A stretch of 64,000 nt of DNA from an uncultured bacterium (GTDB lineage Bacteria; UBP6; UBA1177). This document shows positions 16,333 through 63,054 of the stretch, piece by piece; position 1 is the first letter of the stretch, and each line of letters starts with the position of its first letter. The position numbers and the translations under genes were made by a program. The DNA lies in NCBI GenBank assembly GCA_905235605.1, contig CAJOMF010000014.1:4662-68661 (forward strand), in the 5' to 3' direction. The notes beneath the pieces are model-generated. The model did not search any database and was not told where the DNA came from. It worked only from the letters and a program-made list of their open reading frames with translations.

Positions 16333-16341
16333 TTTTCGGAA

Positions 16342-39627: not shown

Positions 39628-39642
39628 TTGAGAACCTCTTTT

Positions 39643-44667: not shown

Positions 44668-45480
44668 TCAAAAATTTTTCAGAGATTCTTTAAAAGGTTC
44701 AAAAAAACGGGAGAGTTTTTTGCTCGCCGCAGATTTTGTCAATCCGTATTTTTGGGCGATTTCCGTAAAATCGGGTCTGTAATCATGATCTGCTGAATAA
44801 GCGTCCAAAAGTTCCTTATCTATGAAAGTGTAATTCACCAAAATCTCAGGGTTAAGACCATACAACAACAAGTTTTGGAGTGTGGCCCGATAAAGTCTGT
44901 GATAAACCTCTGTAAGATCAAACTCCATTTTCAGAAGTAAGACTGTAAGGATCTCGGAGAGCATCTGATCAGGATTCTTTTTCCACTCTTCCTGGATCTT
45001 CGGGATGAGTTTCTGCAGATCTTTTTTCATAAGGCTTTTTTCCAATGGATCGGTGTCGTTATCTTCCAAAAGAGTGTCCAAAATGGAGAAAGTTTCTCCT
45101 TCATCATTCGTCTTTTCGAGTTCGGTGGTGTTTGCATGTTCTTGAATTTCTTCGCCTTTTGCGGTGTTTATCGCCTTTTTCAATGAATTGAAAAGATATT
45201 TGCTGAAAGGAGCACCATTTTTGCGTGTTTCTGACTCGGGAAACCATTTTAGGCAATCTATGACCACTTTACGAACTTCATCAACATATTCCCCGTAAGC
45301 TGATTTTTTGATCTCTTTGACTTTCAGGTCTGAATTCTGGGAGGCTCCTTTTGGGGTTAATGCTGCCAGAACGATTTTCCATGTAAAGCCTTTTATCGCG
45401 ACTTCGATGTTTTCACCACGATCAAGGGCGTTTTGATATCCTTCGTAAAGTTCGTTAATCTTTTCAAAAATTTTTTCCAT
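44668..45480 (-). CDS. Hypothetical protein with sigma-70-like region 2.2 and region 4 (HTH) signatures
   Basis: …NGAPFSKYLFNSLKKAINTAKGEE… resembles sigma region 2.2 (FSTYxxxxIRxAI). C-terminal …FTEIAQKYGLTKSAASKKLSRF resembles the region-4 HTH. First gene on the low-GC island side. Weak by-eye assignment. Confidence 0.35.
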   Translation of the reverse strand: MEKIFEKINELYEGYQNALDRGENIEVAIKGFTWKIVLAALTPKGASQNSDLKVKEIKKSAYGEYVDEVRKVVIDCLKWFPESETRKNGAPFSKYLFNSLKKAINTAKGEEIQEHANTTELEKTNDEGETFSILDTLLEDNDTDPLEKSLMKKDLQKLIPKIQEEWKKNPDQMLSEILTVLLLKMEFDLTEVYHRLYRATLQNLLLYGLNPEILVNYTFIDKELLDAYSADHDYRPDFTEIAQKYGLTKSAASKKLSRFFEPFKESLKNF

Positions 45481-45482
45481 GG

Positions 45483-46103
45483 TCAGTCCTCGAACAATGC
45501 GTTAATTGTCTTTATTGCTCGTTCACTGCTTGAAGTCTCGATCATGTTGGTAAAGTTCTGCATAAGATAGAGCGGGGTGATGTCGTAGATCATAGGTGAA
45601 CCTTCTACGATTTCGTTGTTTTTGAATTCAACTTTGGAATAAACAATGTAGCCGACGGAACAATCGAAAAATTTCTCTGCAAACTGGCACACTGTGAAAA
45701 GCAAAAATGCCAATGGTTTCGGGCCATAAGTAGTGTCGGCATAGATTTCGGCATCATGCTCGAGTTCTTTGAGGATGGCTTTGAACATAAACTGAAAATT
45801 TGTTTTCGACATATCGAACGCGCTCGGAAGTATTTTATAAGTGATTTTTGCTCCGACTTTGTTGAAATGATCGAGTTCTTCCTCAAAAAGTTTCGCGTTG
45901 TCGCTTCCAGCGTTTTCACCCCCTTTTGTCTCGAGAAGGAGAACTTTGACATCATCATCCGCTTTAAGCGAGTTTGCAAGAGCAGCTGTCGCAGCAAACA
46001 GAATAGGTTCTTTAATCTCAAGCAGAGCGTTGCCGTCAACGGGATAGACGCATTTTTTTAAATTCTTTTTAAGCGGAAGTGTTACGAATAGGATTTTTTT
46101 CAT
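45483..46103 (-). CDS. Hypothetical protein (possible Rossmann-like fold; DTTYGP motif)
   Basis: 206 aa with a 2-nt gap to the downstream sigma-like gene, so an operon. No recognisable family. Preceded by island motif copy 1. Confidence 0.4.
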   Translation of the reverse strand: MKKILFVTLPLKKNLKKCVYPVDGNALLEIKEPILFAATAALANSLKADDDVKVLLLETKGGENAGSDNAKLFEEELDHFNKVGAKITYKILPSAFDMSKTNFQFMFKAILKELEHDAEIYADTTYGPKPLAFLLFTVCQFAEKFFDCSVGYIVYSKVEFKNNEIVEGSPMIYDITPLYLMQNFTNMIETSSSERAIKTINALFED

Positions 46104-46145: not shown

Positions 46146-46178
46146 ATATAATCGGTGAAAAACGGATAAGTTGACAAA
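46146..46178. promoter_or_regulatory. Island-specific conserved motif, copy 1 (TATAAtCGGTGAAAAA-N8-GTTGACAAAA)
   Basis: 43 nt 5' of the 206-aa gene start, on the template of minus-strand genes. Four more copies elsewhere in the island. Confidence 0.5.
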
Positions 46179-46209
46179 ATTTTTTCAAAAATTTCATAAT
46201 ATGCCTGTT

Positions 46210-47730
46210 TTATTGATGTTTTTCTTCACGTTTATCCATTTTCGCCAGCTCGAAAGTGAGATATATCAGGTAGATCTGAATCGCAAAAGCGTGCTTTTCA
46301 AAGAAATCGACCTCTTCGTTTTCGGAGCAGTAGAGAAAACTCATGAATTTTTTCAGATGAGCGCGTTCGTCTTCATCCAAAACATTATTATTATAGATAT
46401 TGGTTTTGTCGAGTTCCTCTTTGGGAAACTTGAGATAGCCGTCTTTATTGAAGACTTTACGCCATAATTCTTTATTGTTTGCCGCGTTGATGTTCAAAGG
46501 AGCCGTGATCTTTTTAAAATAATGCTCCAGAATTACGAGAAGTTTTTCCGCATTTTCTTTTTGAGCCGGATTTTTCTTAAGTTCACAGAGATATTGGTAA
46601 GAATCAAAAAAAGCGTAAAGGAGCAGCTTTTCCCAATACAATATTTGAAAATCGTTGAACATTTGGAAGTCGATATATTTGTCGAACAGTTTATAGACAG
46701 CGACATTCGCTCCCAAGTGGGTTATCCTGTTGCGTTCGGGATACAAAAACTTGTGATTCAGCGCACTTCTATTTGTAAAGCGGTCGTTTTTATTAGCTTT
46801 GATCGTTTGCCCGTCGAGCGAAGGATGTCCGTCCTGCCATTCCATTTCGGATTCTTCAAAGAATTTGCAGGTTATTTCCCTGCAGAATTTTTCATTTCCG
46901 GCAAAAAATGTCTGTGTAAAGCACTGATCCTTGAAACCGAAATCCAGTGTCTTGAGTGTTTTGAGATTAGTCAATACCTTTGTTATTTCTTCATTAGCTT
47001 CTGTATCGGTATAATTCGATTTTTTTCTGTTCGGGAAGATTTTAAGAATAGATTCCTGATGTTCCCTTACAAAATTCACCACATTTATGAGTTTTTCCCT
47101 CGGAACGGCTTCGTTTTCCGGCGGCATGAAATTAGCAAGGATGCGGAGAACGCCTTCATTCGCCTTGAAATAATTTCCTTCGAATTTCGTAAAATCGATA
47201 TCCGTGAATGGAGCTTTTTTTAAAAAACCGAGATCTTTGCTGATTTTATTAAGGATTTCACTCTGTTTTTCAGGCAGATACCAGGATTTTTCTTCCAAGG
47301 CCGAATCAAAAAGCTTCTTGATTTTCAATTTCCGTTCATCGGAAGCGAAAAATGTTCCGACTTCGCAGATGTCACGCAGCAGAAAGAAGAAAACTCCCTG
47401 CAGAAGCCGCATATCTTTTTCGAAAAGTTCAGGATCGATATTTTTGATCTTATCAGGTCTGGCAAGCGATATAACAGCAAAAGCCTTTTCCGCGATAGTT
47501 GTTCCAGCTATGATTCCGCTCGTTGCATTAAAAATATTTTGTTCGACTATGCTTTGGGGAGCAGAAAATACCTTTTTTAGAGAATCAATATTCAAGCCAC
47601 TTAAAGAGTTATAAAAAGCGAGAACCTTGTTCGGTTTTTCACTGAAACCACCGCGCAGGACCTCTTTGTTTTTCTTTATTTCTGCAATAATTTTATCAAG
47701 TTCTTCTTTTGATCTCATGGCATTCTCCAT
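46210..47730 (-). CDS. Hypothetical 506-aa protein (contains an Rx4H HEPN-like motif, RNRITH)
   Basis: Long ORF in the low-GC island with no recognisable catalytic family. The HEPN-like assignment is weak. Confidence 0.4.
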   Translation of the reverse strand: MENAMRSKEELDKIIAEIKKNKEVLRGGFSEKPNKVLAFYNSLSGLNIDSLKKVFSAPQSIVEQNIFNATSGIIAGTTIAEKAFAVISLARPDKIKNIDPELFEKDMRLLQGVFFFLLRDICEVGTFFASDERKLKIKKLFDSALEEKSWYLPEKQSEILNKISKDLGFLKKAPFTDIDFTKFEGNYFKANEGVLRILANFMPPENEAVPREKLINVVNFVREHQESILKIFPNRKKSNYTDTEANEEITKVLTNLKTLKTLDFGFKDQCFTQTFFAGNEKFCREITCKFFEESEMEWQDGHPSLDGQTIKANKNDRFTNRSALNHKFLYPERNRITHLGANVAVYKLFDKYIDFQMFNDFQILYWEKLLLYAFFDSYQYLCELKKNPAQKENAEKLLVILEHYFKKITAPLNINAANNKELWRKVFNKDGYLKFPKEELDKTNIYNNNVLDEDERAHLKKFMSFLYCSENEEVDFFEKHAFAIQIYLIYLTFELAKMDKREEKHQ

Positions 47731-47764
47731 TCAAAACAGCAATCCAATGATTCTGCTGATAAGA

Positions 47765-47797
47765 TATAAGCGGTGAAAAGAAGGGCGGTTGACAATT
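47765..47797. promoter_or_regulatory. Island-specific conserved motif, copy 2
   Basis: TATAAGCGGTGAAAAGAAGGGCGGTTGACAATT, 35 nt 5' of the 506-aa gene start. Confidence 0.5.
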
Positions 47798-48326
47798 ATT
47801 TTAACTTTTGTTGTTCTTTTTTTGTCGCATCATAGGCTTTTTTGACGCTTTTTTTGACTCCGTTGAAAGGGTTTAAAACGGAGTTTTTTGTCGAGTCTAC
47901 ATCCTCGTCATACCTTGCTGATGCGACCACATTATTTTCGAGATCGGTAAAAATAATGTAAAGAGTCCAGTTCCTCTGGTTGTCTTTGTCAATTTCCTCA
48001 TCAAAGTTTTTGAAAACAGTTCTATAATTCGTCAGGAAATTTTTCGAGTCAGTCTCAATTTTCTCCTTGTCTTTTTTATAACTGAGAACAAAACAGTGGA
48101 TCGGACTGTTCTGATAATAAGAACCAGTGTAATTGTCTCCTTCAAAATCACTGTTGATTTTTTGTCCGTTTATGCAACGCCTGTAATCATTGTTGCTTTG
48201 TCCATATGAGGTGGTGTATACATATGGAAAATCTGCAGTGGATTGCTTTTGCAGAGAAATCTTCTCAGCCCAAACGGCAGTAAAAACGAACAAAATGGCA
48301 AAAACAGCCAAAAATTTCTTTAACAT
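47796..48326 (-). CDS. Small secreted hypothetical protein
   Basis: Start placed at MLKKFLAVFAILFVFTAVWA (signal peptide). Asn/Tyr-rich. Lies between the 276-aa and 506-aa genes. Confidence 0.4.
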   Translation of the reverse strand: MLKKFLAVFAILFVFTAVWAEKISLQKQSTADFPYVYTTSYGQSNNDYRRCINGQKINSDFEGDNYTGSYYQNSPIHCFVLSYKKDKEKIETDSKNFLTNYRTVFKNFDEEIDKDNQRNWTLYIIFTDLENNVVASARYDEDVDSTKNSVLNPFNGVKKSVKKAYDATKKEQQKLK

Positions 48327-48403
48327 TTTTTCCTCCCTTAAGTTTAGATCCGTAATCAACCAAAATTCGAGTCAGAATAGTTAAAAATAGAGATTTGTAA
48401 ATA

Positions 48404-49234
48404 TTATGCGGCTTTGTCGAAAGCCAATATTTTATTGATCAATTTCGACAGTGATTCTTCTTTGAGTAATTTGCCGGTGAACTTTTTTATTGTTTTATGG
48501 TACTGACGTATATCGTATATGACCTCATCTTGCTGCTCTTTGTTTCTGAACCTCAATATCATAAAACGGATGTGTCTCTGGTATGCTTTGAAATCGGAAT
48601 TCACGAAATCATAAAATGTCTTTTCAGGGAAGCGTGTATGGTAAAATATTGCAAATTCGCTTCTTGCTTCCGTCAGATCGGAATAAGACGGCTTGTCACT
48701 GTGTTGGATATCTACTATTTCGTTGTTTATTTTTCTTTGGTTTGATTGAATGAGATCGTAACCTGGGAATTTTTTTGTTTTATCGGAACTCCAGTCTCTG
48801 TCGATGGGTTTTGACGGATCAAAAAACTCTCCCGAAAGGTCGTTGATGTAAAATTCCAGATCTTCGATCCCGATCTGCTTTATTTTGTGCTTTTTCTCCA
48901 TAAACTTCCGGCCTTCAAATGTGATTTCATAACTTTCGCCGTTTTCTTTCAGCAGCTCGTTCTTTATCAGGAAATTGAATTGCATATTCAGAAAACTGTT
49001 GCTGTCTATGCCCAGGAAAGAGCATATTTTCGAATATTCGGTAATACCGTTGTCGACAAGTTTCAGGATCACCATGCTGAAACGGTCGATTTCTCTTTCA
49101 GTTTCAAAAGCGACTTTCTGTTTGCATTTCCAGAACGGGAGATCAATTTCGAAAATGTCTTCCAGCTGGAATCCTTCCGTTGAGTATTCGTCCTTGTAAA
49201 GTTCCCAGATCCTCTGTTTAAGTTCTCTATCCAT
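48404..49234 (-). CDS. Hypothetical 276-aa protein (possible wHTH), translationally coupled to the upstream helicase
   Basis: 8-nt overlap with the helicase stop (…ATGGATAG…). Central segment resembles a winged helix. Confidence 0.45.
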   Translation of the reverse strand: MDRELKQRIWELYKDEYSTEGFQLEDIFEIDLPFWKCKQKVAFETEREIDRFSMVILKLVDNGITEYSKICSFLGIDSNSFLNMQFNFLIKNELLKENGESYEITFEGRKFMEKKHKIKQIGIEDLEFYINDLSGEFFDPSKPIDRDWSSDKTKKFPGYDLIQSNQRKINNEIVDIQHSDKPSYSDLTEARSEFAIFYHTRFPEKTFYDFVNSDFKAYQRHIRFMILRFRNKEQQDEVIYDIRQYHKTIKKFTGKLLKEESLSKLINKILAFDKAA

Positions 49235-52214
49235 TGAAAACCTCCTCCAAACTGTTGAATATAAGACCTTCTTTCTGAAGTTTTTCTGCTATTTTCTGCA
49301 ATTTGAATTCCGGAAAATCCTCCGACGGGGTGAATGTCGCCCTGTTCAGGAGGTAATCGCTGTCTCCGACTACGAACAGCAGGCGTTTCGCTCTCGAAAA
49401 TGCGACGTTGATCCTTCGGTAATCGGCTAAAAATCCGATGTTGTCCTGCCCCTGAGCACTTCTGACGATGTCGTAGATTATGATATCGCGTTCGGCTCCC
49501 TGAAATTTGTCGACAGTCTTTATTTCTATGAGGGGCTCACCCTTTTCCGTTACGAAATTACGGTATTTTTTCAGATTGATCTTCTGCTTCAGAAGCTCCA
49601 CCTGACCTTTGTAGGCGGCTATAACACCAATAGTGAGCGGCTTCTCTTTTTTCGTATTGGACGGATAAAGCGAGTTGAGTTTTTCAAGCAGTTCTTTTAT
49701 GGCTTCGACATTGCACTGGTTCTGGCGGAAGAATTTGTTGCCGTTGTCGTAAGGCTGAGGTCTTTGGGAAGTGCTCAAAAACGCTATGGATGTCGGTTTT
49801 TTCAAATTCAGACCATGTGCCTTGTCGGCATCGAAGCCGGGAATATCAGGGTTTTTGAGTTTGCCGTCGTAAAAGAATTCCGAGATCAGGCTCCCGATCT
49901 GTTTAGGCATCCGGTACTGGATATCGAGCATTCTTATGAAACGCTCGTTCGGAGTTCCCTGAAATCCTTTTTTTATTTTTTCGAAAAGACTGACTCCGTA
50001 GGTTTTGTCTATATCGAGACCGTCGTCTTCCATTTTTTCTCTGACATTCTTTCTTACAGCTTCTTCTCTTGTGATAACTGGCGGAAGCTGCCTGTCATCT
50101 CCTATCATTATGATGTTTTTCCCCATGCTCAAAGGGACAAGCGATTCTGCAGGGGTGGCTTTGCTGCTTTCATCCATTATTACATAGTCGAATTCAAAAT
50201 GTATATTCCGATATTTGCTGCTTGCGATATGGATGCATGTCGCTCCGACAACATTCGTGTTGTTAAGCATCGCGCTCAGGAGATCTATCTTTTCGCTTCC
50301 GTTGTCCAGCAGTGCTTTGTTTTTGAGCAGACCGTTGCCTATAAATGCAAGCCAATCTTTATTTATCTCAAGCAATATCCCGTTTTGGTCTTTGTCCGCG
50401 AACTCTTTTGAAAAATTTTCCGATGATGTTTTTGCCGTGTCGTTTATGTATTTTTCCAGCTTTTTTTCGAAGCAGTGCTGTTTCATCAGAATCGAAACAT
50501 TGTCCTTTTCCAAAGCGTTGTCACTTGCCAGCCGCATGAATGTCACATCTTTTTCTCCAGCAAGTTTTTCCAGGACGTTGTCCACTGCCAGATTCGACTG
50601 GGATGTCAGCAGGATCCTGACGTTTTTATTCTGTTTGATCAATTGGAGTATGATCTCAAGGATAACTGTCGTCTTGCCTGTTCCGGGAGGGCCTTGAATG
50701 AGGTATATCGGTTTGTAGTTGATCGCATCGACAACAGCTTCCAATTGAGATTCATCGTTTTCCAGCTTAGGATTGAAAAGATCATTCAGAATGTCGGCAT
50801 GATCCGATGGATGGATTCTGCAAGGTATTTCGCTTTCAGGCGTGGTTACTATGTCACACAGTTGTTTATTCACAATATCGCGCTGTTGAAATTGCTGACA
50901 GGCCTCTATCTGCTTTTTAAACTGGCTCGTTTTTTGATTGGTGTCTTCTGTAATGGTCCATGATTCAGGGATTTCTTCAATATTCCGTTTTGGATCTTTT
51001 ATCGTTATAGTTCCATCTTCCGGGCCGTAGTCGAGGATCTCACCGATCAGCGGAAGCGGAGGTTTTTTGCTCTGTAAAAACACTTTCGTTTGTTCATTTT
51101 TCAGTTCTTTGATCTTGCCCCAGTTGATCCCAGTATAGTCCTTTAAATAGAAGATCAAATCACCGTTGTCGCTTTCTTCTACCTTGTCATACTTTACTGC
51201 AAAGGCATTTTCTTCGATGTAGCGTTTTTCCGACTGAGGCAGTTCCTTCCAAATCTCCAATTCATTTTGTTGAGTCCGGTTCAATTCAGACAGCCTGTTG
51301 CTTTTCACTGCTGAGCGGAAATGGCGGCTCAATGGTGGCAGTTTTTTCAGCAGATCTATCAGATCTGCATACTTAGAAAAACGTTCGGTGCGTTCCTCTG
51401 CCAATGACCCAGACAGTATCAGATCGATGGTCTCCTTATGGTCTTCAGTCGCATAATTCTCTCTGATAAAATCCTCGAAAGTCTTTATGAGAGAGTAGAT
51501 ATCATCCTGAAAATTTATCCGGCCGTTTCTGCTAGAAAGATATCTTTTTGCTCCAGCAGAAAGATAATTTTGATCAAGCAGTCCTTCATCGGCGAAGATG
51601 TCGAAAAGTTTTGCGAAAAGGAGTTCTGCACGTCCCTCATCGTCAATTTTGATGTATTTTGGTGATATTATGAATTTCTCTGAATTCTCGTTTTTCTTGA
51701 ACCAATCGAGGCCGAGAGCAATATTGGTAACATCGGTGATATCAACTTTTTCGGCGGATTCTTCAAGCATGTTGTCTCCGAAATTCTCATAAACTATGTA
51801 ATAAAAATGCTGATTTTCATCGTATCCTGTATCCATGATCTTTACAAATCCAGGGATCTCTTTGTCAATCAAAGGCTTTATTTCGTAATCAAGGATCCTT
51901 TTTATCTTTCTGGCGTTTGTTTCCGTTTCTTTTATCATCAGAATGTCAAAGATTTCGCCTTCACGGTTTTCGCACCCTTCGAAAAAACGGAGGTTGGAAC
52001 TTAATTCTTTCGAAGCTGAGATAACGGTGTAATTTCCTATCGTTTCTGTGCCCGATATGTCATTTGCTGCACTCTCTTCCTCTTCTTCAAAGACCTCTTC
52101 GGAATCAAAATCCATGCTTAATGATTCATAAGAAAAGAAACGGTCGGATCTCCCCGAATAGGTGAGTTCTTCGATCGGTTCTCCGAGATAGAATAAATTC
52201 GAGTTTTTTTTCAT
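49227..52214 (-). CDS. Upf1-like SF1B helicase (DNA2/NAM7, AAA_11/AAA_12-type) with roughly 480-aa uncharacterised N-terminal domain
   Basis: Walker A GPPGTGKTT. Motif II VIMDESSKA. Motif III/IV region. Motif VI KFQGAERDIIIYDIVRS. Start placed at MKKNSNLF (ATG 52214) after GGAGG. N-terminal half has no clear family but shows a kinase-like beta3-K / hinge pattern. Confidence 0.7.
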   Translation of the reverse strand: MKKNSNLFYLGEPIEELTYSGRSDRFFSYESLSMDFDSEEVFEEEEESAANDISGTETIGNYTVISASKELSSNLRFFEGCENREGEIFDILMIKETETNARKIKRILDYEIKPLIDKEIPGFVKIMDTGYDENQHFYYIVYENFGDNMLEESAEKVDITDVTNIALGLDWFKKNENSEKFIISPKYIKIDDEGRAELLFAKLFDIFADEGLLDQNYLSAGAKRYLSSRNGRINFQDDIYSLIKTFEDFIRENYATEDHKETIDLILSGSLAEERTERFSKYADLIDLLKKLPPLSRHFRSAVKSNRLSELNRTQQNELEIWKELPQSEKRYIEENAFAVKYDKVEESDNGDLIFYLKDYTGINWGKIKELKNEQTKVFLQSKKPPLPLIGEILDYGPEDGTITIKDPKRNIEEIPESWTITEDTNQKTSQFKKQIEACQQFQQRDIVNKQLCDIVTTPESEIPCRIHPSDHADILNDLFNPKLENDESQLEAVVDAINYKPIYLIQGPPGTGKTTVILEIILQLIKQNKNVRILLTSQSNLAVDNVLEKLAGEKDVTFMRLASDNALEKDNVSILMKQHCFEKKLEKYINDTAKTSSENFSKEFADKDQNGILLEINKDWLAFIGNGLLKNKALLDNGSEKIDLLSAMLNNTNVVGATCIHIASSKYRNIHFEFDYVIMDESSKATPAESLVPLSMGKNIIMIGDDRQLPPVITREEAVRKNVREKMEDDGLDIDKTYGVSLFEKIKKGFQGTPNERFIRMLDIQYRMPKQIGSLISEFFYDGKLKNPDIPGFDADKAHGLNLKKPTSIAFLSTSQRPQPYDNGNKFFRQNQCNVEAIKELLEKLNSLYPSNTKKEKPLTIGVIAAYKGQVELLKQKINLKKYRNFVTEKGEPLIEIKTVDKFQGAERDIIIYDIVRSAQGQDNIGFLADYRRINVAFSRAKRLLFVVGDSDYLLNRATFTPSEDFPEFKLQKIAEKLQKEGLIFNSLEEVFNG

Positions 52215-52251
52215 TTTTTCCTCCTTGAGAAGCGTTACATCCAACACCACT

Positions 52252-52284
52252 TATAAGCGGTGAAAAATCCCTGAGTTGACAAAA
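52252..52284. promoter_or_regulatory. Island-specific conserved motif, copy 3
   Basis: TATAAGCGGTGAAAAATCCCTGAGTTGACAAAA, 38 nt 5' of the helicase start. Confidence 0.5.
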
Positions 52285-52314
52285 AATCTGTGCAAAAAGC
52301 TTAAGGCTGTTAAA

Positions 52315-54048
52315 TTATTGGTTGTTTCTCACACACACAACTTTGAGTTTATAGTCGAGAATGTAGGGAAAATCTGCCGAATGTGCTCCTCCGCGATTGT
52401 ATGCGTCAATAAGCATCGTCATGTGGCCGACTCTGGCGTTCATAAAGTCAACGCCCCATGCTTCTTTAGTGTTTTCCGGGTCGAGAGTTGATGACCAGAA
52501 GGCCTCAATTGAGCCGGTTTTGCTGAATTTGGGATCGTTTATTTCTTCCAAAAGTTGTTTTTGGGTTTCTTCTCCGAGCTCATAGTATTCCGTTTTTGCC
52601 GTCAGAGTGTTGATTTTACCGCACCCGTTGCAGTCTTTGCTCCAGCATTTTTCATTAAGGCACTGTCTGTTTTCGCTGATTCTGCACCTGCCTCCCAATT
52701 TGGTTTTGTCGCAGTTGTGAATAAGCGTGCGCAATTCGTCTATGTTTGGCAGGTGCCAGTCGGAATTGTTGTTTTCTGTAAGGTTTGAGCAGTAATTCTG
52801 TGCTTCTTCCCATGTCATCGGATCGGCTGCAACGGACGACCACTTCAAAGACTTGGGATTTGGCAATGATTTCACAGGTTTCCTTTTAGGTTTAACCTTG
52901 AAATCGTCATCTTTTCTGTCGCGGACGCAGATCACATCTGTATCGTGGTTTATCACCGGCACATAAAGAGCGAGGTCGAGCACCGGACTGTATGTCCAGC
53001 CGAACCGGTCTGGCCTTGCATGAGAGCCGTCCCAGATACTGTTTGCCGTGAGAGCCCTTATCCCGTGAGTTCTTCTTGCAGCAAGGAAAAAACTTTCATC
53101 TGCATCTTTTTCCGGCTTTTTATATCTGCCGTGCAGCGATTTTAATTCTTCTATTGTCGGCTGGCGCCAGTCGCTGAAACCTCCTTCTCTTAAAGATTCA
53201 CAGTATGCATAGGCATCATGCACCCCGAAAGTATTGTTCACGCAGTCACGATACAGGTATCCGCAGGGAATTTCCCGTTCTTCGTTTTCTTCGCAGATCC
53301 AGCTTTCATCGCAAAGTCCTTTTGCTGCGGTGTACATGATGTGCCGATCTGCAAGCAGCGCTGCTGTGTAGTTTTTCTTTTTCGACACCGTGCTTTCAGA
53401 CCACTGCAGTTTGTCAGGATCGATGGTTTTTTCTATTTCAATTTTTTTCTCTGCGGCAAAGTCTTTCGGGTAAGATTCCCTGACGCACGCAACATTGCAG
53501 AGATCCCGCATACACGGGCGGCACGGATGCCAGTCAGGATCGGCAAGGCAGCTTTTTCCGCTAACCATCCCGTAACCGTTAAACCAGTTCTGGTCATTTT
53601 CCTTTTCGTTGAAAGACCAGAAACAGCTGTCGTAAAGGTAAAATCCGTTGACATAAGTCCGCAATGTGTCAGCCTCTTTTTCTGTGTAGAATATGCCGCT
53701 TCCCTCCTTGAATACTGAACAATCTTTCATTATTGATTTCAATTCCTCGGTTGTCGGCGGTCTCCAGTCGGAAAAACCGTCTTCGCGCAGCTCTTCGCAG
53801 TATTCTGCGATGGTGTCGTAATACATCGGTCCGGGAGAGGGCTGCGACCACATAAGATTTGGAGCGACATCGGTTTTTACAGTGGACTGCTTCTCACGGC
53901 GTATGGCAGGATCGGGATCATTTTCAGTGTCTTGAAGCAGAATTATGTCTTCGTTTTTTGGTTTCTGAACCTCTTCTTTTGAAGAACAGCCGGACATCAA
54001 GCAGAGTGTAATCATGCAAAGGTGTAAGATCATTGAGATATTTTTCAT
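52315..54048 (-). CDS. Secreted lipoprotein with three DUF1566 / Fib_succ_major domains
   Basis: Lipobox LMSGCSS. Three copies of the YCEELREDGFSDWRPPTTEELKSI / YCESLREGGFSDWRQPTIEELKSL / YCSNLTENNNSDWHLPNIDELRTL signature. Confidence 0.7.
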   Translation of the reverse strand: MKNISMILHLCMITLCLMSGCSSKEEVQKPKNEDIILLQDTENDPDPAIRREKQSTVKTDVAPNLMWSQPSPGPMYYDTIAEYCEELREDGFSDWRPPTTEELKSIMKDCSVFKEGSGIFYTEKEADTLRTYVNGFYLYDSCFWSFNEKENDQNWFNGYGMVSGKSCLADPDWHPCRPCMRDLCNVACVRESYPKDFAAEKKIEIEKTIDPDKLQWSESTVSKKKNYTAALLADRHIMYTAAKGLCDESWICEENEEREIPCGYLYRDCVNNTFGVHDAYAYCESLREGGFSDWRQPTIEELKSLHGRYKKPEKDADESFFLAARRTHGIRALTANSIWDGSHARPDRFGWTYSPVLDLALYVPVINHDTDVICVRDRKDDDFKVKPKRKPVKSLPNPKSLKWSSVAADPMTWEEAQNYCSNLTENNNSDWHLPNIDELRTLIHNCDKTKLGGRCRISENRQCLNEKCWSKDCNGCGKINTLTAKTEYYELGEETQKQLLEEINDPKFSKTGSIEAFWSSTLDPENTKEAWGVDFMNARVGHMTMLIDAYNRGGAHSADFPYILDYKLKVVCVRNNQ

Positions 54049-54073
54049 CGTTTCCCTCCGTTATGTGGTTGTT

Positions 54074-54364
54074 TTAGGCAACGCAAAGAAGACGGTATTC
54101 TTCGTGCCATGTTCTGTCGTCTTCAAAAGCGATAATGTTTCTGAGTTTTCGTCTGAATTCGCGCTGAGGTTTGTCACTTTTGTAGAAGGAATAGTGCGTA
54201 AGGTGGTAACAGCCGCATTTTGAGCAGTAATATTTCCTTTTCGGGATCTCGTTCGCGTGTCCGCATTTTTTTGCTCCGTTGAGAGCGTTTCCCGCTTCTC
54301 TTTCAGTGTAGCAGATCTTTCCCGTGCTTTTGCATCTCAAATCTCTTCCGAAATCGTCTTTCAT
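54074..54364 (-). CDS. Small zinc-ribbon protein (CxxxxxxC … CSKCGC)
   Basis: 96 aa, basic, two Cys clusters. GGAGGG RBS. Island motif copy 4 lies 44 nt upstream. Confidence 0.4.
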   Translation of the reverse strand: MKDDFGRDLRCKSTGKICYTEREAGNALNGAKKCGHANEIPKRKYYCSKCGCYHLTHYSFYKSDKPQREFRRKLRNIIAFEDDRTWHEEYRLLCVA

Positions 54365-54407
54365 CTTTTCCCTCCATTTGTCTTGTCAATCAAACGCCTA
54401 CACGACA

Positions 54408-54440
54408 TGTAAGGGGTGGAAAATGAGAGAGTTGACAAAA
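54408..54440. promoter_or_regulatory. Island-specific conserved motif, copy 4 (degenerate 5' half)
   Basis: TGTAAGGGGTGGAAAATGAGAGAGTTGACAAAA. Confidence 0.45.
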
Positions 54441-54454
54441 TTTGCCTCCTTTTT

Positions 54455-55012
54455 TCATACTAAAGTGTTAAAAAGCCTGTCCCCAGTGTCTGGTCCTATG
54501 CCGTTTTTTTGAGTCAAAACTTTTTGACCGACAAAAGAATTATTTGAAACTCTGACTGTAAAAACTTCATAATCGTTGAATTTTTTAATAGATTTCTCGC
54601 ACAAAACATTCGTGACAATTTTAATTTTATCTTTTGGAATCTCAGATTTTTCGATTGCACTCAAAATGCCCTTTCCTGAATTGATAACTGCATCTACGAA
54701 AATAACGTCTTTGTTGAAAAGCAGCAGTTTGTTTTTCTCAAAAAAATCCTTGTCTGTTTTGTCATCGTAAAATGTTACGGCACAATCCAGACAATCTGCA
54801 AAACCTAAAGCCATTGGAATCCCAGCCCTTATTAAAGCTATGATTATGGAATCTTTTGTGAAGTGATTTTTAAAATATTTCCCTAATGCAAATCCCAAAT
54901 CAATATGAGCATGTCTCAATTCAGCTCCAGTTTTTTGAGAGTCACTTTTGCAAATACTGATTGCGTCAACAATTTTATCTGTTGAAAAATTTTCGCTTAA
55001 AACATACAGCAT
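54455..55012 (-). CDS. Uracil phosphoribosyltransferase-like PRTase (Upp family)
   Basis: PRPP-binding loop VIFVDAVINSGKG. C-terminal GIGPDTGDRLFNT matches the Upp tail (GLGDAGDRLFGT). GAGGAG RBS. 2-nt gap to the upstream gene. Confidence 0.65.
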   Translation of the reverse strand: MLYVLSENFSTDKIVDAISICKSDSQKTGAELRHAHIDLGFALGKYFKNHFTKDSIIIALIRAGIPMALGFADCLDCAVTFYDDKTDKDFFEKNKLLLFNKDVIFVDAVINSGKGILSAIEKSEIPKDKIKIVTNVLCEKSIKKFNDYEVFTVRVSNNSFVGQKVLTQKNGIGPDTGDRLFNTLV

Positions 55013-55014
55013 TA

Positions 55015-56220
55015 CTATTCTCCTCTGATTCCTTTATATTGATTTTCATTCCCTGCAAACTGTCGTATTGCGGTGTTTCTATGATTATCAATGTATGTTT
55101 GTACAGCAGGTCTTATTTTCCCTGGAGCCCAGAGGTAGCCGCTTGACATTTCAAGCATATAAATGTCGCACATGCTGTCTCCGGCACTAAAAACTTCGTA
55201 ATTTTGTAACAGAAGCAATTCTACGACATAACCTTTGACAAAATCCGAGATAAGATTCTTTGAGTTTTGGTTGAGATCGTTGCCTATTACCATTTCAAAT
55301 AAATGATGCTCTGCATTGAATTGATTCCAAAATTTATATATTCCAGAGGTGAGTCCAAACACGTGATACCCAGAAGTTTTTAAAGATTTTAGTTTTTCGA
55401 TGACGATATTATTGGCATGAAATAAAGAGGTCTTAGGGTGTTTTTTGAAGTTCTTGTATAATTCCTTTTGTCGCCAAAACTGATATACAGAATAGATATC
55501 GTCTGTAAAAATGGTTTTTAATATTGCAGGATCGGTGTTGTTGAGTTCAAAAAACGGAATAGTCGAATCCTCTTTAATGATGGTCTTGTCACAATCAAAT
55601 ATGGCGATTTTTTTAAATTTGTTTGGGTCGGAGCGTGTGTTCTCAATTTGAGAAACAATTCTTTGAGCTATGTTCATAGGTGTTAATTCAGGGAAACAAT
55701 CCATGTATTCATGCAAAAACTTCATGTCCAGATCAAAATCAGCATCCAGAACAATGAATTCTTTACGAGATTTGAAGCATATATCTCTAAGTTCCGAAAT
55801 CTCTTTTAATTGCCAATCTTTTATTTGTTGTTCCGTAAGATTTCTAAATTTTTGATTTTTCTGGCTTAAATTTATTCTTTCTTTTGCAATAGATGGATTG
55901 ACGTGCAGGTACAAAAATATGTCGTACAACTTACAATCGTTTTCTGTGCAAACAATTTTAAAACTTTGAGAATCAGGAAAACAATAGTGACCATCGACAA
56001 TAAAATCCTGTTGATTTTTTAATTCTTCTGCGAAAATAGTTCTTGTCCTTTTTTGAAGTTCGGAATCTAATTCCTGAAAATTTTTGCAATATATCCTGTT
56101 AGATATGATGTTTAATTGCTCAGATCCTTTCTTGTGGCAGTATTGCGGAAAATGACGAAGAAATTTTTCTATAAACGTGTCTTTCCCGGCACAGGAAATT
56201 CCATATACAGCAATCTTCAT
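55015..56220 (-). CDS. Fusion of a P-loop nucleoside/nucleotide kinase-like domain (Udk/NRK-like) and a HAD-superfamily phosphatase domain
   Basis: N-terminal KIAVYGISCAGKDT P-loop. C-terminal HAD motif I IAIFDCDKTII (DxDxT) and motif IV GDSMCD. ATGA overlap with the radical SAM gene. Confidence 0.6.
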   Translation of the reverse strand: MKIAVYGISCAGKDTFIEKFLRHFPQYCHKKGSEQLNIISNRIYCKNFQELDSELQKRTRTIFAEELKNQQDFIVDGHYCFPDSQSFKIVCTENDCKLYDIFLYLHVNPSIAKERINLSQKNQKFRNLTEQQIKDWQLKEISELRDICFKSRKEFIVLDADFDLDMKFLHEYMDCFPELTPMNIAQRIVSQIENTRSDPNKFKKIAIFDCDKTIIKEDSTIPFFELNNTDPAILKTIFTDDIYSVYQFWRQKELYKNFKKHPKTSLFHANNIVIEKLKSLKTSGYHVFGLTSGIYKFWNQFNAEHHLFEMVIGNDLNQNSKNLISDFVKGYVVELLLLQNYEVFSAGDSMCDIYMLEMSSGYLWAPGKIRPAVQTYIDNHRNTAIRQFAGNENQYKGIRGE

Positions 56221-57128
56221 TTTATATCCCCTATATATTTGTCAAAATAGCATTCCCCGTCATTAAGCTGCTTAAATCGTTGCATGGATTTTTCTACCGA
56301 TATTAACGAATCTGACGCCTTGCCTATTTCATATTCAGGTAGTCCGATGAATCTGCCGCAAGGGTATATTTTATTGTTCGCATAAAAAATGTTTGTTTTT
56401 CCGACCCCGCATAACTGACCATACATCGTGCAGTCGTATCGTTTGGGTTTGCGCAACTGTCTCAGTAACAGTTTTTTTTGAGAGGCCTCCTCTATAAATT
56501 TAATAAAATCGCCTTTGGATATGTATAAATCCGGAGATTTTTCATCCACAAGTCTGGAAAAGCAGACTTCGGAAAAATTCTGCTCAAAAAATCTAAGAGT
56601 TTCTGTTTCGCTGCTCAGTGTTCCTTTGTGAACAGTTGCATTTACGGAAGGTGTTTCCTGAAAGATTTTTTTATATAGATTTATAGAGTTCATTACAATG
56701 TCAAAGGAGCCTTTTCCGTAGGCAAGTGTTCTGCATGAATCATGTAGATTTTTATCGCCGTCTATGGAAAAACATAGTTTTATTAAATCCCGATTGTTGT
56801 GGAACCACCGGATAATATTTTCTGTGGCAGAGATCCCGTTGGTTATGGTGTAAAAAGACAGCAGTTTATGTTTGGCGATCAGCCTGGTATACGAGACAGC
56901 TTCTTGTATTAAATCAAACCGGATTAACGGTTCCCCTGCGCCGACAAGTCCGATTTTGAAATTTATCTTGTTCTCTTCTGAATAAGCAACAATGTTGGAT
57001 ATAATATTGAGCAGAACTTCTGTAGAAATGTCATTGCAAGACTGCTTTGAAACATGCTTGTCAAAGTGGCAGTATCTGCAGCGAAGTTGGCATTTGCCTG
57101 TTATGGAAATACAAGCTCTGTCAATCAT
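56217..57128 (-). CDS. Radical SAM enzyme, MoaA/viperin-like (CxxxCxxC near N-terminus, GAGEPL)
   Basis: ISITGKCQLRCRYC (CX3CX2C) resembles the MoaA N-terminus (ISVTDRCNLRCTYC). …NKINFKIGLVGAGEPL… resembles viperin/MoaA (EKINFSGGEPF). C-terminal Cys pair. Start at MIDRAC (ATG 57128) after GAGG. Confidence 0.7.
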   Translation of the reverse strand: MIDRACISITGKCQLRCRYCHFDKHVSKQSCNDISTEVLLNIISNIVAYSEENKINFKIGLVGAGEPLIRFDLIQEAVSYTRLIAKHKLLSFYTITNGISATENIIRWFHNNRDLIKLCFSIDGDKNLHDSCRTLAYGKGSFDIVMNSINLYKKIFQETPSVNATVHKGTLSSETETLRFFEQNFSEVCFSRLVDEKSPDLYISKGDFIKFIEEASQKKLLLRQLRKPKRYDCTMYGQLCGVGKTNIFYANNKIYPCGRFIGLPEYEIGKASDSLISVEKSMQRFKQLNDGECYFDKYIGDIK

Positions 57129-57129
57129 T

Positions 57130-58389
57130 TCAGACCTCATTGTTTTCAGTTTTTGCAAATTTTTTATTAATTTCAGGATCGTTGATTTGGAGGGCATAAT
57201 CTTTGGCGGTTTTGTTTTCGTAACGACTGTGAATATTTAAGTCTGTTTTATCAACAAGATAGTTTGCAACATCAGAACACTTTCTAATGCAAGCTTTTAT
57301 TAAAGGCGTAAAACCGTTGGAATCCTGTTGGTTGCAGCAAGCTCCCTGTTCAACAAGATATTTTACTATCTCAAGTTCTCCATGCCATGCAGCGATCATC
57401 AAAGCAGTGTTTCCGTAATTATCGCCTTGCGAACCTTTGTCTATGTCAGCCCCGTTTTGCAATAGGATTTTTATAAATTCTAAATTTTTTATTTGAACCG
57501 CATGGCTAATTGGTGGAAGTCTGTATTTTGCATCGTCGCATTTATTTATATCTGTTCCCGGCAGGGAAATAAGGTATTCGAGCATTTTTTTGTCTCTATT
57601 TCTGATTGCTTGAATGCAAGGGGTATATCCCGTTTTGGGGTCAGTATGATTTATGTCGGGATTTCCCTTTTTTACTTTCTCTGCATCCAAAATATTTCCG
57701 TTTTTAACAGCATTGTAAAAATTGCCGGTGTCTCTGGGGCTAAAATCTTCATCCGATAGAGAGAATTCTCTTTCGTAATCCTCAAGATTTAACACTTTGA
57801 AATTTAGAGTTGATGCAGCTTTCAAAGGGAAATAAACATCTTCAGCAAGAAGAAAAACGGTTAGTGATGAGTCTTTTTTGGCTTCACGCAGAGCAGCATT
57901 TATGATTTTATTGTCGTTGAAATTCTCATTTTTATTAACAACATCTTCGAGAACTAAAAATCTTTTTTCATCTTTTTTCTGCAAATCAACAAAAGACTTC
58001 ATAGCTAGCCAAGCCTGTTGCTTTCGTTTTCCACGATCTTTTTGGTAATTCATTTCATCAAGAACTGTTTCGGTAATGCAGATATAGTTAATGGCTTTTT
58101 TTCCATTCATTTCTTCCAAAATTCTTGGTCTGCGGCACAATATGGATGAATCCACGATCAGCATGATTTTTTTTGATTTTTTCAATCCTAACAATTCGTC
58201 AATGCTCACACAAAATGTTTGAGCTATTTGAATTAGCTGGTCGGTTGTCGGAAGACTTTTCGCTTGTTCCCAATTCGACACTGTAGGTCTTGAAACATTG
58301 AGCTTGTTTGCAAACTCTTCTTGTTTTAGCCCTTTGGAATTTCTTAACTCTTCAATGTTTTTAGCAATTTCGTCTTTTGAGTAATTCAT
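57130..58389 (-). CDS. XRE-family HTH + PIN-like domain + ankyrin-repeat protein
   Basis: HTH_XRE (LKQEEFANKLNVSRPTVSNWEQ). PIN-like acidic motifs (KIMLIVDSSIL…ITETVLDEM). At least two ankyrin repeats (GNTALMIAAWHGELEIVKYLVEQGA…). AGGAG RBS. Confidence 0.6.
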   Translation of the reverse strand: MNYSKDEIAKNIEELRNSKGLKQEEFANKLNVSRPTVSNWEQAKSLPTTDQLIQIAQTFCVSIDELLGLKKSKKIMLIVDSSILCRRPRILEEMNGKKAINYICITETVLDEMNYQKDRGKRKQQAWLAMKSFVDLQKKDEKRFLVLEDVVNKNENFNDNKIINAALREAKKDSSLTVFLLAEDVYFPLKAASTLNFKVLNLEDYEREFSLSDEDFSPRDTGNFYNAVKNGNILDAEKVKKGNPDINHTDPKTGYTPCIQAIRNRDKKMLEYLISLPGTDINKCDDAKYRLPPISHAVQIKNLEFIKILLQNGADIDKGSQGDNYGNTALMIAAWHGELEIVKYLVEQGACCNQQDSNGFTPLIKACIRKCSDVANYLVDKTDLNIHSRYENKTAKDYALQINDPEINKKFAKTENNEV

Positions 58390-58590
58390 TTTTTTCTCCT
58401 TTCAAGTGGTTCTGTTTCTCAAAAAAACAATCAACGAAAAGTATTTTAAGCAAGAATTTTTAATGTCAATATCAATTACTTGTATTTTGACCAATGTTAA
58501 ATCTTCTTACATTTGTAAAAAATCCTGACATCGCAATAAATAGAACAATGTATCCTTTTTTCACTTATCAAAGAACCTTTCTGCTCTACC

Positions 58591-58624
58591 TATAAGCGTC
58601 AAAAACTTTCTGAGTTGACAAATA
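58591..58624. promoter_or_regulatory. Island-specific conserved motif, copy 5
   Basis: TATAAGCGTCAAAAACTTTCTGAGTTGACAAATA, about 200 nt 5' of the XRE-PIN-ANK gene. Confidence 0.45.
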
Positions 58625-58695: not shown

Positions 58696-59553
58696 TTAGT
58701 ACAACTTTTCCTTGTGTTCCAATTCGAGTTTTTTATCGTCGATGGAAGCCTTGAGGATTTCGTAGTATTTCTGGCGTGTAAATATGTTTGCTTTGTATTG
58801 TGCGTGCTGTTTGCCGTCCAGTTTGCTCTCAACTGCATGCCGTTTCAGAATCTCTTCGACAAAACGGTTCGGGATCGCGTAGTCGATAAGCAGACAGTCG
58901 ATGAGATCGACTTTGCTCCTGCCGTTCAGGAAAGCGCAGGTTTTGAGAACATGGACGATTCTTTTCCAGCGGGAGTCACTTACATAGAACTCGAAGCACT
59001 TTCTTCTGATTTCTGAAATGACACTTTTGGCTTCTTCGCTCAGTTCGACCCTGTCGATTACCGGCTGCCACTCTTTTACTTCCTTTATTGTAAGCAGTGC
59101 GGCTTTTTGTTCTTTATCGGGATGCGGGATTGTCTCGAAGCTGGGACTGTTTACGAAGTTAAAAAAATTGTCGTCATCCGCAATCGGTTTTACCTCGACA
59201 GTAATGACCCAATCTTCATTATTTTCCGCAGCTTTATAGGGATCTGCTTCCGACGAGTTTTCCATACGGAATAAAGAATCAATGCCGTATTCTGACGACC
59301 GGGGGGCAAACTGATCATGGCTGTAATAATCTTTAAACGCACTTTGGATAGAGAACTGAATAAGTTTTTTGTCGTTGTCGGATCTTCCGGAAAGAATAAT
59401 GTCTTCCGCAGCAACAGCCGAAAGCAGCGAAAGGTTGATTACTTCCTCTCTGCCTCGCAGATTACGGTTTAAAAAGGCAAGAACAGTTTCAATACGGTCA
59501 CGCATTTCCTTGCCGGAAAAAATCTTTTTTTCTCCCGAATTGTTGTCGCTCAT
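58696..59553 (-). CDS. Hypothetical protein (island edge, adjacent to tRNA-Leu)
   Basis: ATG 59553 after GAGG. No recognisable family. A partial motif-like TTTTTGACAATTTT lies at 59603-59616 upstream. Confidence 0.4.
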   Translation of the reverse strand: MSDNNSGEKKIFSGKEMRDRIETVLAFLNRNLRGREEVINLSLLSAVAAEDIILSGRSDNDKKLIQFSIQSAFKDYYSHDQFAPRSSEYGIDSLFRMENSSEADPYKAAENNEDWVITVEVKPIADDDNFFNFVNSPSFETIPHPDKEQKAALLTIKEVKEWQPVIDRVELSEEAKSVISEIRRKCFEFYVSDSRWKRIVHVLKTCAFLNGRSKVDLIDCLLIDYAIPNRFVEEILKRHAVESKLDGKQHAQYKANIFTRQKYYEILKASIDDKKLELEHKEKLY

Positions 59554-59680
59554 CTTCAACCTCGTAAAAAGTGATTAAAAAACTGCGTAATTTTAAAGAA
59601 GAAGAGATTTTTGACAATTTTTTGCGGGAAACGGTTTTTCAGCTTTTCTATTTGCTGCAAAGCTTGGATTGTTCTAAAAA

Positions 59681-59768
59681 TGGTGCCGGAGACCGGGCTC
59701 GAACCGGTACAGGAGGTTATCCCGAGGGATTTTAAGTCCCTTGCGTCTACCAATTCCGCCACTCCGGC
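59681..59768 (-). tRNA. tRNA-Leu (anticodon UAA), CCA encoded
   Basis: Minus-strand read: GCCGGAGTGGCGGAATTGGTAGACGC…AGGGACTTAAAATCCCT…GGTTCGAGCCCGGTCTCCGGCACCA. Long variable arm. Anticodon loop CTTAAAA. Confidence 0.85.
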
Positions 59769-59785
59769 GGTTATAAGTTTGAAAA

Positions 59786-59859
59786 TGGAGGCACCTTCCG
59801 GATTCGAACCGGAGATGGAGATTTTGCAGACCTCTGCCTTACCTCTTGGCTAAGGTGCC
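59786..59859 (-). tRNA. tRNA-Cys (anticodon GCA), CCA encoded
   Basis: GGCACCTTAGCCAAGAGGTAAGGCAGAGGTCTGCAAAATCTCC…GGTTCGAATCCGGAAGGTGCCTCCA. Anticodon loop CTGCAAA. Confidence 0.85.
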
Positions 59860-59897
59860 GACCAAAAAGAATTTCGATTGAAAAAGGACATAAAAAA

Positions 59898-59973
59898 ATG
59901 GAGCGGGAAACGGGATTCGGACCCGCGACGTCTACCTTGGCAAGGTAGCACTCTACCACTGAGTTATTCCCGC
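59898..59973 (-). tRNA. tRNA-Gly (anticodon GCC), CCA encoded
   Basis: GCGGGAATAACTCAGTGGTAGAGTGCTACCTTGCCAAGGTAGACGTCGCGGGTCCGAATCCCGTTTCCCGCTCCA. Anticodon loop TTGCCAA. Confidence 0.85.
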
Positions 59974-60074: not shown

Positions 60075-60170
60075 GAGAAAATTTTGCGGAAAGTGCGTTT
60101 TTTGGCGAAAAAAATTTTGCGAAAAGTGCAGTTTTGAGCAAAAAAAATTTTGCGATTCCTGCAAAGCCAT
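60075..60170. repeat. Three tandem imperfect copies of AAAATTTTGCG(G/A)AAAGTGC(A)GTTTT; a related copy at 59619-59645 and a 45-bp near-duplicate at 63074-63118
   Basis: Direct comparison: 60117-60160 ttttgcgaaaagtgcagttttgagcaaaaaaaattttgcgattc versus 63074-63118 ttttgcggaaagcgcagttttgagcaaaaaaattttgcgattc. Confidence 0.55.
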
Positions 60171-62930: not shown

Positions 62931-63054
62931 ATCACAAAATTCCGGTGTATTTTGCCACAATTTTTCACAAAATTCCAGTTGTTTTTTGCTGTTTTTTCAC
63001 AAAATTCCGGATGTTTCAGTGATATTTTTCACAAAAATCTGATTTTAGGACTGT
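62931..63054. repeat. Four direct repeats TCACAAAATTCC(G/A)G at about 33-bp spacing upstream of the second DUF4143 ATPase
   Basis: Copies at 62931, 62963, 62997 and 63038. The proximal copy is about 15 nt from the ATG, mirroring the 39643-39728 arrangement. Confidence 0.55.

Follow-up and report, generated by a model that had tools for sequence, protein, structure and literature searches.

The 64,000-nucleotide stretch of contig CAJOMF010000014.1 analysed here (an uncultured bacterium of the GTDB lineage UBP6; UBA1177), referred to below as the window, carries a genomic island in which a 31-bp sequence motif recurs ahead of transcription units, and this motif, together with the pair of genes that probably governs it, is the subject of the present analysis. 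The island lies between core genes (MORN/LPP20/Clp-type ATPase, 40.8-44.6 kb) and a cluster of tRNA-Leu, tRNA-Cys and tRNA-Gly genes, and its G+C content is ~0.36-0.40 in its most AT-rich stretches, compared with 0.44 for the whole window. Its genes are encoded on the (-) strand and form five co-directional units, each with one copy of the motif ahead of it (Table 1): an operon for a 206-amino-acid (aa) CARF protein and a 270-aa sigma-like protein (unit i), a gene for a 506-aa protein (unit ii), a helicase operon (unit iii), genes for a 96-aa Cys-rich protein and an Lcl_C-domain protein (unit iv), and a four-gene operon led by an XRE-PIN-ankyrin (XRE-PIN-ANK) gene (unit v).

A preliminary description of this DNA, made from its letters, had reported a 33-bp motif in five copies. 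The five co-oriented copies are real, but the layout, read on the + strand as TATAAGCGGTGAAAA-N8-GTTGACAA (n=5 co-oriented copies), covers 31 bp, and copy 1 begins at 46147 and not at 46146; the pattern as it was literally given (16 nt + N8 + 8 nt) has a base too many and therefore returns 0 matches. On the strand of the genes the motif reads TTGTCAACT-N7-TTTTYC..CGCTTATA-N4-GTGT. When we searched the window for the core GTCAAC-N17-CTTATA, allowing <=1 mismatch, exactly the five sites were matched, all on the (-) strand, against a chance expectation of 0.23, and five matches were reached in 0/100 shuffles. We also scored the window with a position weight matrix (PWM) derived from 37 regex-selected sites across loci, which include ~five off-target sites and the five window copies themselves; the five copies scored 44-62 bits, whereas the rest of the 64-kb window, both strands (128 kb), stayed at <12 bits. 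The proposed restriction of the motif to the island is thus borne out within the 64-kb window by both the PWM and the core-pattern scan, and no copy falls in the window's 50 kb of core DNA. In an alignment of the five intergenic regions, identity is limited to ~33 bp, the 7-nt core of the spacer is variable, the flanks cannot be aligned and terminal inverted repeats are absent around the motif. The motif is consequently neither a miniature inverted-repeat transposable element (MITE) nor part of a duplicated intergenic region, and the dispersed-repeat origin that had been named as an alternative was not borne out. No Rfam families were found at the motif sites, and copy 2 directly adjoins the stop codon of the preceding gene.

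The geometry of the motif is of the -35/-10 type. On the gene strand, a TGTCAAC box sits 17 bp upstream of CTTATA. Counted from the last base of CTTATA, the start codon follows after 43 nt in the CARF gene (copy 1), after 34 or 46 nt in the 506/502-aa gene (copy 2), after 37 nt in the helicase gene (copy 3; the ATG at 52214 is the likely start and gives a protein of 995 aa), after 43 nt in the 96-aa gene (copy 4) and after 201 nt in the XRE-PIN-ANK gene (copy 5), in agreement with the earlier estimate of four copies at 35-44 nt and a fifth at ~200 nt. The remark that GTTGACAA lies on the strand opposite to the genes proved to be a reading-frame effect, since the gene strand has ordinary TGTCAAC/CTTATA promoter geometry. 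Across 30 non-redundant motif sites on related contigs, each site is co-directional with the next open reading frame, at a distance of 29-58 nt for cargo genes and 43-85 nt for the CARF operon, with longer leaders at two sites (135 nt in L067 and the 201 nt before XRE-PIN-ANK); the start codons behind the motif are preceded by a Shine-Dalgarno sequence, with a leader of 25-50 nt. The count matrix of these 30 sites begins with an A/T-rich upstream stretch, continues with an invariant GTCAAC followed by T, a variable segment of 6-7 nt and a T-tract, and leads into C-(A/G)-(C/A)-C-G-C-T-T-A-T-A, in which CTTA is invariant; a conserved GTGT follows 4-8 nt downstream of the -10-like box. Judged by its sequence, the element is laid out as a bacterial promoter: a 17-bp spacer separates the -35-like box from the -10-like box, and a start region follows. 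A loose scan for TTGACA-N16-18-TATAAT at 9/12 positions was passed by copy 1 only, the other four of the five copies failing it, and the island as a whole contains 32 sigma-70-like promoter matches against a shuffle expectation of 31.9. As had been suggested earlier, the motif is not a promoter of the housekeeping type.

Next to the first motif copy stands the gene for the 206-aa protein, which matches the PADLOC model CARF2--CARF PDLC01820 over nearly its whole length (E = 1.7e-72, residues 1-205 vs 1-204 of 205), the PADLOC model Csx1 PDLC01431 (E = 6e-38) and TIGR02221 (cas_TM1812; E = 3e-13, 50 bits, below the 76-bit cut-off). A comparison of the CARF profile with PDB sequences was uninformative, and the assignment was settled by PADLOC. 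The protein carries a DxTHG-like motif, D122-x-T124-x-G126, which is invariant in 23 diverse homologues; motifs of this kind are the ligand site of CARF domains. Homologues from Treponema and Fibrobacter are named TM1812 family CRISPR-associated protein at NCBI. In Csx1(TM1812), a Rossmann-fold (now CARF) domain is fused to HEPN (PMC3710099), and the HEPN part is missing from the 206-aa protein. These profile matches identify it as a stand-alone CARF domain, an identity that the preliminary description had missed, as it had the anti-phage nature of the island's cargo.

The start codon of the 270-aa protein lies 2 nt past the CARF stop codon, in the same operon. We found 16 close homologues of this protein, and an exhaustive profile search extended the family to ~300 representatives. 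When a profile of 71 family members was compared with the PDB, it matched chains of RpoS, SigA, RpoD, SigF and FliA with E = 6e-10 to 1e-8; the alignment spans sigma regions 2.2-2.4 and 3, dozens of solved sigma factors were matched, and the family consensus aligned to RpoS reads "ClksFd..g.eFlkYlnsslkkaI". Among the 71 members, 10 match Sigma70_r3, and Sigma70_r4 and r4_2 are matched by one each. An AlphaFold2 model built on the family alignment reached a pLDDT (predicted local distance difference test) of 82, and in Foldseek its top twelve matches were all SigA chains at E > 0.1, by which a sigma fold is weakly favoured. We believe, mainly on the strength of the profile match, that the 270-aa protein is probably a very divergent member of the sigma-70 family. 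The preliminary description had offered both this protein and the XRE protein as the cognate factor; deep-profile homology upholds the former, and we return to the latter below.

At all loci found by exact-protein look-ups, the CARF and sigma genes are adjacent. On several rumen contigs the pair occupies the same chromosomal slot, beside LPP20 and a Clp-type ATPase, with different cargo: a kinase-fused helicase and a PLD nuclease (PLDc_2) in L003, NrdG/NrdD, a metallophosphatase, dNK and an LRR-methyltransferase in L005, a helicase and DUF2357 giant proteins in L008, and a radical SAM protein, MoxR-VWA-MoxR, a DnaJ protein and a glycosyltransferase-rSAM in L009. In these four loci the sigma proteins are 29-75% identical, and 2-7 copies of the motif stand on the coding strand ahead of the pair and of unrelated cargo operons. 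The site and leader of copy 2 recur in L003 and L009. The corrected pattern, run against 241 million metagenome records, yielded 51 stretches, in which the full extended motif occurs at ten sites on six rumen-type contigs. Three of the six carry the pair or probably do so: the stretches retrieved for L037 and L064 contain it, and L062/L072 apparently derive from a P0014 contig; the stretches retrieved for L067 and L068 do not contain it. The ~40 other matches are chance-like singletons that lack the extended flanking features. As a control, a pattern with shifted spacing, one base longer, found 22 singletons from unrelated taxa in 596 Gb of reference contigs. Neither the CARF nor the sigma protein is encoded at the chance-like or control loci, and searches of viral contigs turned up no motif and no CARF gene.

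Carriers of the pair further include Treponema sp. OMZ 788, metagenome-assembled genomes (MAGs) of Treponema and Fibrobacter, a Spirochaetia MAG and others, and in these distant lineages the partner gene of CARF always fits the sigma-like profile (1e-26 to 7e-75). Here the geometry of the motif is kept and its boxes have drifted. The Fibrobacter MAG L090 has GTCAAC-N17-CTATAT before the CARF gene, and the Treponema MAG L091 has GTCAAC-N18-CTTATA and CTTAAT before the unit of the pair and a VWA-PP2C-kinase-helicase operon; L094 has CTGTCAACTT-N17-GTATwT at three sites, and L087 and L092 together have a GTGTTAAG / AAAAAGTGTTAAG box-N17-CTATwT at five sites. In L087 and L092 the recognition helix of the predicted sigma helix-turn-helix (HTH) carries ASRTL in place of SKKL. 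The motif, which had been called private, is thus not limited to the source genome and accompanies the CARF-sigma pair in several lineages.

On this evidence we consider it probable, at roughly 0.65, that the 31-bp motif is the promoter of the island's own divergent sigma-70-family factor (44668-45480), acting when bound to RNA polymerase. Several observations weigh against this reading. The 270-aa protein matched no Pfam/NCBIfam sigma model at E <= 0.01, a family profile of 10 sequences found no match in the PDB, so that a deep profile was needed, and the WW dyad of region 2.3 is missing from the family. In the motif itself, the CTTATA box lacks the A at canonical -11 (17-bp alignment). The co-variation of box and HTH is suggestive only, because it amounts to a single evolutionary event and because the HTH of L094 is altered (AAKHKWDRF) while GTCAAC is retained. 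In addition, there are no cas genes (including cas10), no CRISPR array and no cyclase in the window or in the examined 20-kb neighbourhoods. The lack of a direct sigma match, with a weak Myb-like HTH as the only direct domain match, and the weak support from the fold search would also suit a two-domain DNA-binding activator or repressor, in which case the motif would be an operator overlapping a promoter of the host sigma factor; TTGTCA indeed agrees with 5/6 of the -35 consensus, and one copy passes the loose sigma-70 scan. We nevertheless regard such an operator as unlikely, since the family profile covers the core-binding and -10 regions of sigma factors (2.2-2.4 and 3) at E ~1e-9, since the motif is asymmetric and bipartite, with a fixed spacer of 17-18 bp and a promoter-like distance from Shine-Dalgarno sequence and ATG, and since the sigma-70 scan is failed by 4/5 copies.

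The remaining alternatives fare worse. If the motif were a recombination site at cassette boundaries, at which defence modules are exchanged, its resemblance to a promoter would be incidental; this would account for the same slot holding the same motif with different cargo (MkoA and a winged-helix protein in the window, kinase-MkoA and PLD in L003) and for copy 2 adjoining the stop codon of the preceding gene. However, domain annotation found no integrase or recombinase among the island genes, the motif contains no inverted repeats, its orientation and its distance from the start codon are strictly fixed, and the conserved regulator operon itself also has the motif, all of which makes a recombination site very unlikely. 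The XRE-PIN-ANK and the 276-aa winged-helix proteins are island-encoded and have DNA-binding domains, and either might have bound the motif as an operator. Yet both genes are missing from the motif-bearing loci L003, L005, L008 and L009, in which the CARF-sigma pair is always present, so that the XRE protein is not the cognate factor; the motif is without the dyad symmetry expected of an operator for an HTH dimer, and, of the five copies, the one closest to the XRE gene has the longest distance to its start codon (201 nt). We hold an operator of either protein to be highly improbable, and of the two possibilities raised in the preliminary description, an operator or an alternative-sigma promoter, the promoter is the likelier. 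Hardly credible, finally, is a variant housekeeping promoter, a dispersed repeat or a chance similarity: the boxes partly resemble TTGACA and TATAAT, but the core DNA of the window and the shuffles speak against it, as do the unalignable flanks devoid of terminal repeats and the shifted-spacing pattern, which over 596 Gb gave singletons only, in unrelated taxa. The readings as XRE operator, MITE, chance similarity and housekeeping promoter were accordingly rejected.

If the motif is a promoter of the island's sigma factor, the predicted C-terminal HTH of the 270-aa protein (...TKSAASKKLSRF) would read the -35-like box TGTCAACT, sigma region 2 would read the -10-like CTTATA 17 bp downstream of it, and the GTGT 4-8 nt past CTTATA would be the likely region of transcription start. 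The CARF-sigma operon has its own copy of the motif, which suggests positive autoregulation and would make its expression self-amplifying. A co-expressed brake is normally required in circuits that amplify themselves, and for this role the CARF protein, which is translationally coupled to the sigma factor, is the obvious candidate. The analogy with CARF sensors, sigma/anti-sigma pairs and CalpL-CalpT-CalpS leads us to infer that this protein may act as a gate which holds or licenses the sigma factor by means of a nucleotide second messenger; binding of the sigma-like protein to RNA polymerase, its direct recognition of the motif, a ligand for the CARF protein and the direction of control would all be parts of this scheme. 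Because one sigma factor would read all copies, several unrelated anti-phage cassettes could be switched on together, and a single signal may fire all five. A fuller version of this scheme, which we put forward tentatively and as less likely than not, is that a stand-alone CARF protein directly gates a private sigma factor, with no protease relay; that a messenger made elsewhere in the cell releases the self-amplifying sigma factor; that exchangeable cassettes bearing a portable 31-bp promoter are then switched on simultaneously; and that this alarm is conserved in Spirochaetota, Fibrobacterota and uncultured rumen bacteria.

Table 1. Features of the island and its border, with coordinates in the window
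Feature	Coordinates	Strand	Remarks
Motif copy 1	46147..46177	(-)	62 bits (PWM); upstream of CARF + sigma operon (autoregulatory position)
Motif copy 2	47765..47795	(-)	43.9 bits (PWM); upstream of 506/502-aa gene
Motif copy 3	52252..52282	(-)	49.5 bits (PWM); upstream of MkoA-like helicase operon
Motif copy 4	54408..54438	(-)	46.7 bits (PWM); upstream of 96-aa Cys-rich and Lcl_C genes
Motif copy 5	58591..58621	(-)	45.5 bits (PWM); upstream of XRE-PIN-ANK/rSAM/kinase-HAD/PRTase operon
Unit i		(-)	206-aa CARF gene + 270-aa sigma-like gene
270-aa putative divergent sigma-70-family protein	44668..45480	(-)	unit i; proposed cognate factor
206-aa stand-alone CARF (CARF2/Csx1-type) protein	45483..46103	(-)	unit i; PADLOC, NCBIfam
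506-aa (or 502-aa) protein	46210..47730	(-)	unit ii; no detectable family; orthologues behind same motif in L003, L009
187/176-aa protein	47796..48359	(-)	unit iii, last gene; N-terminal signal-peptide-like segment
276-aa winged-helix protein, helicase partner	48404..49234	(-)	unit iii; HTH_45
Superfamily 1 (SF1) helicase, Mokosh MkoA-like	49227..52250	(-)	unit iii; AAA_11/AAA_12; PADLOC MkoA E = 4e-137
577-aa Lcl_C-domain protein	52315..54048	(-)	unit iv; Lcl_C domain
96-aa Cys-rich (zinc-ribbon-like) protein	54074..54364	(-)	unit iv; most recurrent cargo
Four-gene operon	54455..58389	(-)	unit v; Pfam/NCBIfam domains
Phosphoribosyltransferase (PRTase) gene	54455-55012	(-)	unit v
AAA_17 kinase-HAD gene	55015-56220	(-)	unit v
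Radical SAM (rSAM) gene	56217-57197	(-)	unit v; weak pVip match
XRE-PIN-ankyrin (XRE-PIN-ANK) gene	57130-58389	(-)	unit v
tRNA-Leu, tRNA-Cys, tRNA-Gly cluster	59681..59973	(-)	bounds island

The cargo of the island is anti-phage defence. In unit iii, the match of the helicase to MkoA is accompanied by a weak N-terminal match of the 276-aa protein to MkoB, the PLD-nuclease partner of MkoA in the Mokosh system; no PLD domain was found in the 276-aa protein. The slot behind motif copy 3, which in the window (48404-52250) holds the MkoA-like helicase and the 276-aa winged-helix protein, holds a kinase-helicase and a PLD nuclease in L003 (L003:2500-7027), which has the appearance of one Mokosh variant exchanged for another as a cassette. 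The leader of the 96-aa gene in unit iv (54365-54407), GTGTAGGCAGTTTGATTGACAACAA..GGAGG, is nearly identical across islands (L003:255-330, L064:2551-2625, L068), and a zinc protein of this size under the island promoter could be a regulator, for example an anti-sigma factor. Neither the 506-aa nor the 96-aa protein has detectable relatives in the PDB. In PADLOC, unit v matches only the candidate family PDC-M72A, pVip (weakly) and generic HTH families, and its XRE-PIN-ankyrin, radical SAM, kinase-HAD and PRTase genes together look like an uncatalogued defence system. Within the 201-nt leader of this operon lies a sigma-70-like site (58469-58440), so that the operon may have two promoters. Also inside the island is a gene for a 287-aa AAA_lid_8 protein (58696-59559, (-) strand) behind an ordinary TTGTCA-N16-TAAAAT promoter, not the motif; in L008 the homologous gene belongs to an operon that follows a motif copy and the 96-aa gene.

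Some further features were recorded around the island and at related loci. An AAA_14/DUF4143 ATPase in the flanking region (61566-62918, (-) strand) matches the PADLOC candidate PDC-S01 with E = 3e-150, and a second flanking AAA_14/DUF4143 ATPase (38269-39657, (-) strand) was assigned only via the Pfam annotation of the corresponding L001 gene; a Fic/HTH_24 gene lies at 35764-36783. Two intergenic tandem repeats, of 33 bp x 2.4 copies (60078-60155) and 32 bp x 2.5 copies (62932-63036), are situated near the tRNA cluster and upstream of the DUF4143 ATPase gene. BamA is present in the source organism, which apparently stems from rumen MAGs. In the related island L088, there are three copies of a 27-nt unit, GGGAAGGTTTTAAGTGCACTTAACGAC, with a spacing of 41 nt (16860-16968), and the block is duplicated 2.7 kb apart (19556-19664). 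Genes beside the Spirochaetia pair contain long arrays of a 72-nt (24-codon) repeat (L087:10800-12500 and 15190-16843), which probably encode repeat proteins.

How bacteria silence toxic immune systems and yet fire them jointly is an open question, and at this locus the wiring is legible in the DNA, with one regulator pair, one promoter and many swappable cassettes. If our interpretation is true, a direct route from CARF to sigma would join the known outputs of cyclic-nucleotide signalling, and a sigma-70 subfamily beyond the reach of current domain models would be defined. Moreover, defence genes could be discovered through the regulon, with the promoter as a sequence tag; the XRE-PIN-ankyrin/radical-SAM/kinase-HAD/PRTase operon and the 506-aa and 96-aa proteins are candidates of this kind. 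As the pair occurs in a named strain with a complete genome, Treponema sp. OMZ 788 (CP051199.1), experiments may be feasible. We found no description of a CARF-sigma pair in the literature searched, which did not cover the 2020 CARF classification paper.

Two published systems come closest to the arrangement proposed here. CalpL-CalpT-CalpS is a type III CRISPR-associated system in which a Lon protease activated by cyclic tetra-adenylate (cA4) frees an extracytoplasmic function (ECF)-like sigma factor (PMC11229360). Both systems couple a nucleotide sensor of the CARF/SAVED type genetically to a dedicated sigma factor for a transcriptional antiviral response. Unlike in the Calp system, the neighbouring genes here encode no Lon, SAVED domain or CalpT-like anti-sigma factor, the sensor is a bare 206-aa CARF2 domain and no type III CRISPR locus lies nearby; the sigma protein, unlike CalpS, is not ECF-like, having relatives with region 3, and curated models all missed it. 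A further difference is that the target promoters and the regulon, composed of multiple defence cassettes, can be read here from the DNA. In Myxococcus xanthus, the ECF sigma factor DdvS and its transmembrane anti-sigma factor DdvA control an island with a cyclic-oligonucleotide-based anti-phage signalling system (CBASS) and type III-B CRISPR (PMC11506125). There, too, a multi-system defence island is placed under a dedicated sigma factor; by contrast, our pair combines another sigma family with a cytoplasmic CARF partner instead of a membrane anti-sigma factor, its cargo varies by genome, and each cassette has its own copy of the promoter.

Control of immune operons by a sensor-coupled regulator encoded beside its targets is shared with Csa3 (CARF fused to a winged HTH), CapH/CapP, CapK/CapS and BrxR, and there are weak Pfam hints of Csa3_N. 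Those regulators are repressors or activators that bind operators, whereas the DNA-reading partner proposed here appears homologous to sigma regions 2-4 and faces a -35/-10 site. Promoters of ECF sigma factors are of the AAC-N16/17-CGT type. The island motif resembles them in a -35 box ending in AAC, a rigid spacer length and a presumably autoregulated sigma operon, and differs in that its -10 box is CTTATA and not of the CGT type, in the greater length of the protein and in relatives that have region 3. Sigma-controlled defence islands, signalling from cyclic nucleotides to a sigma factor (Calp) and island regulators such as CapK/CapS are already known; set apart from them here are a sigma subfamily invisible to curated models, its bare CARF partner and a promoter copy on each exchangeable cassette.

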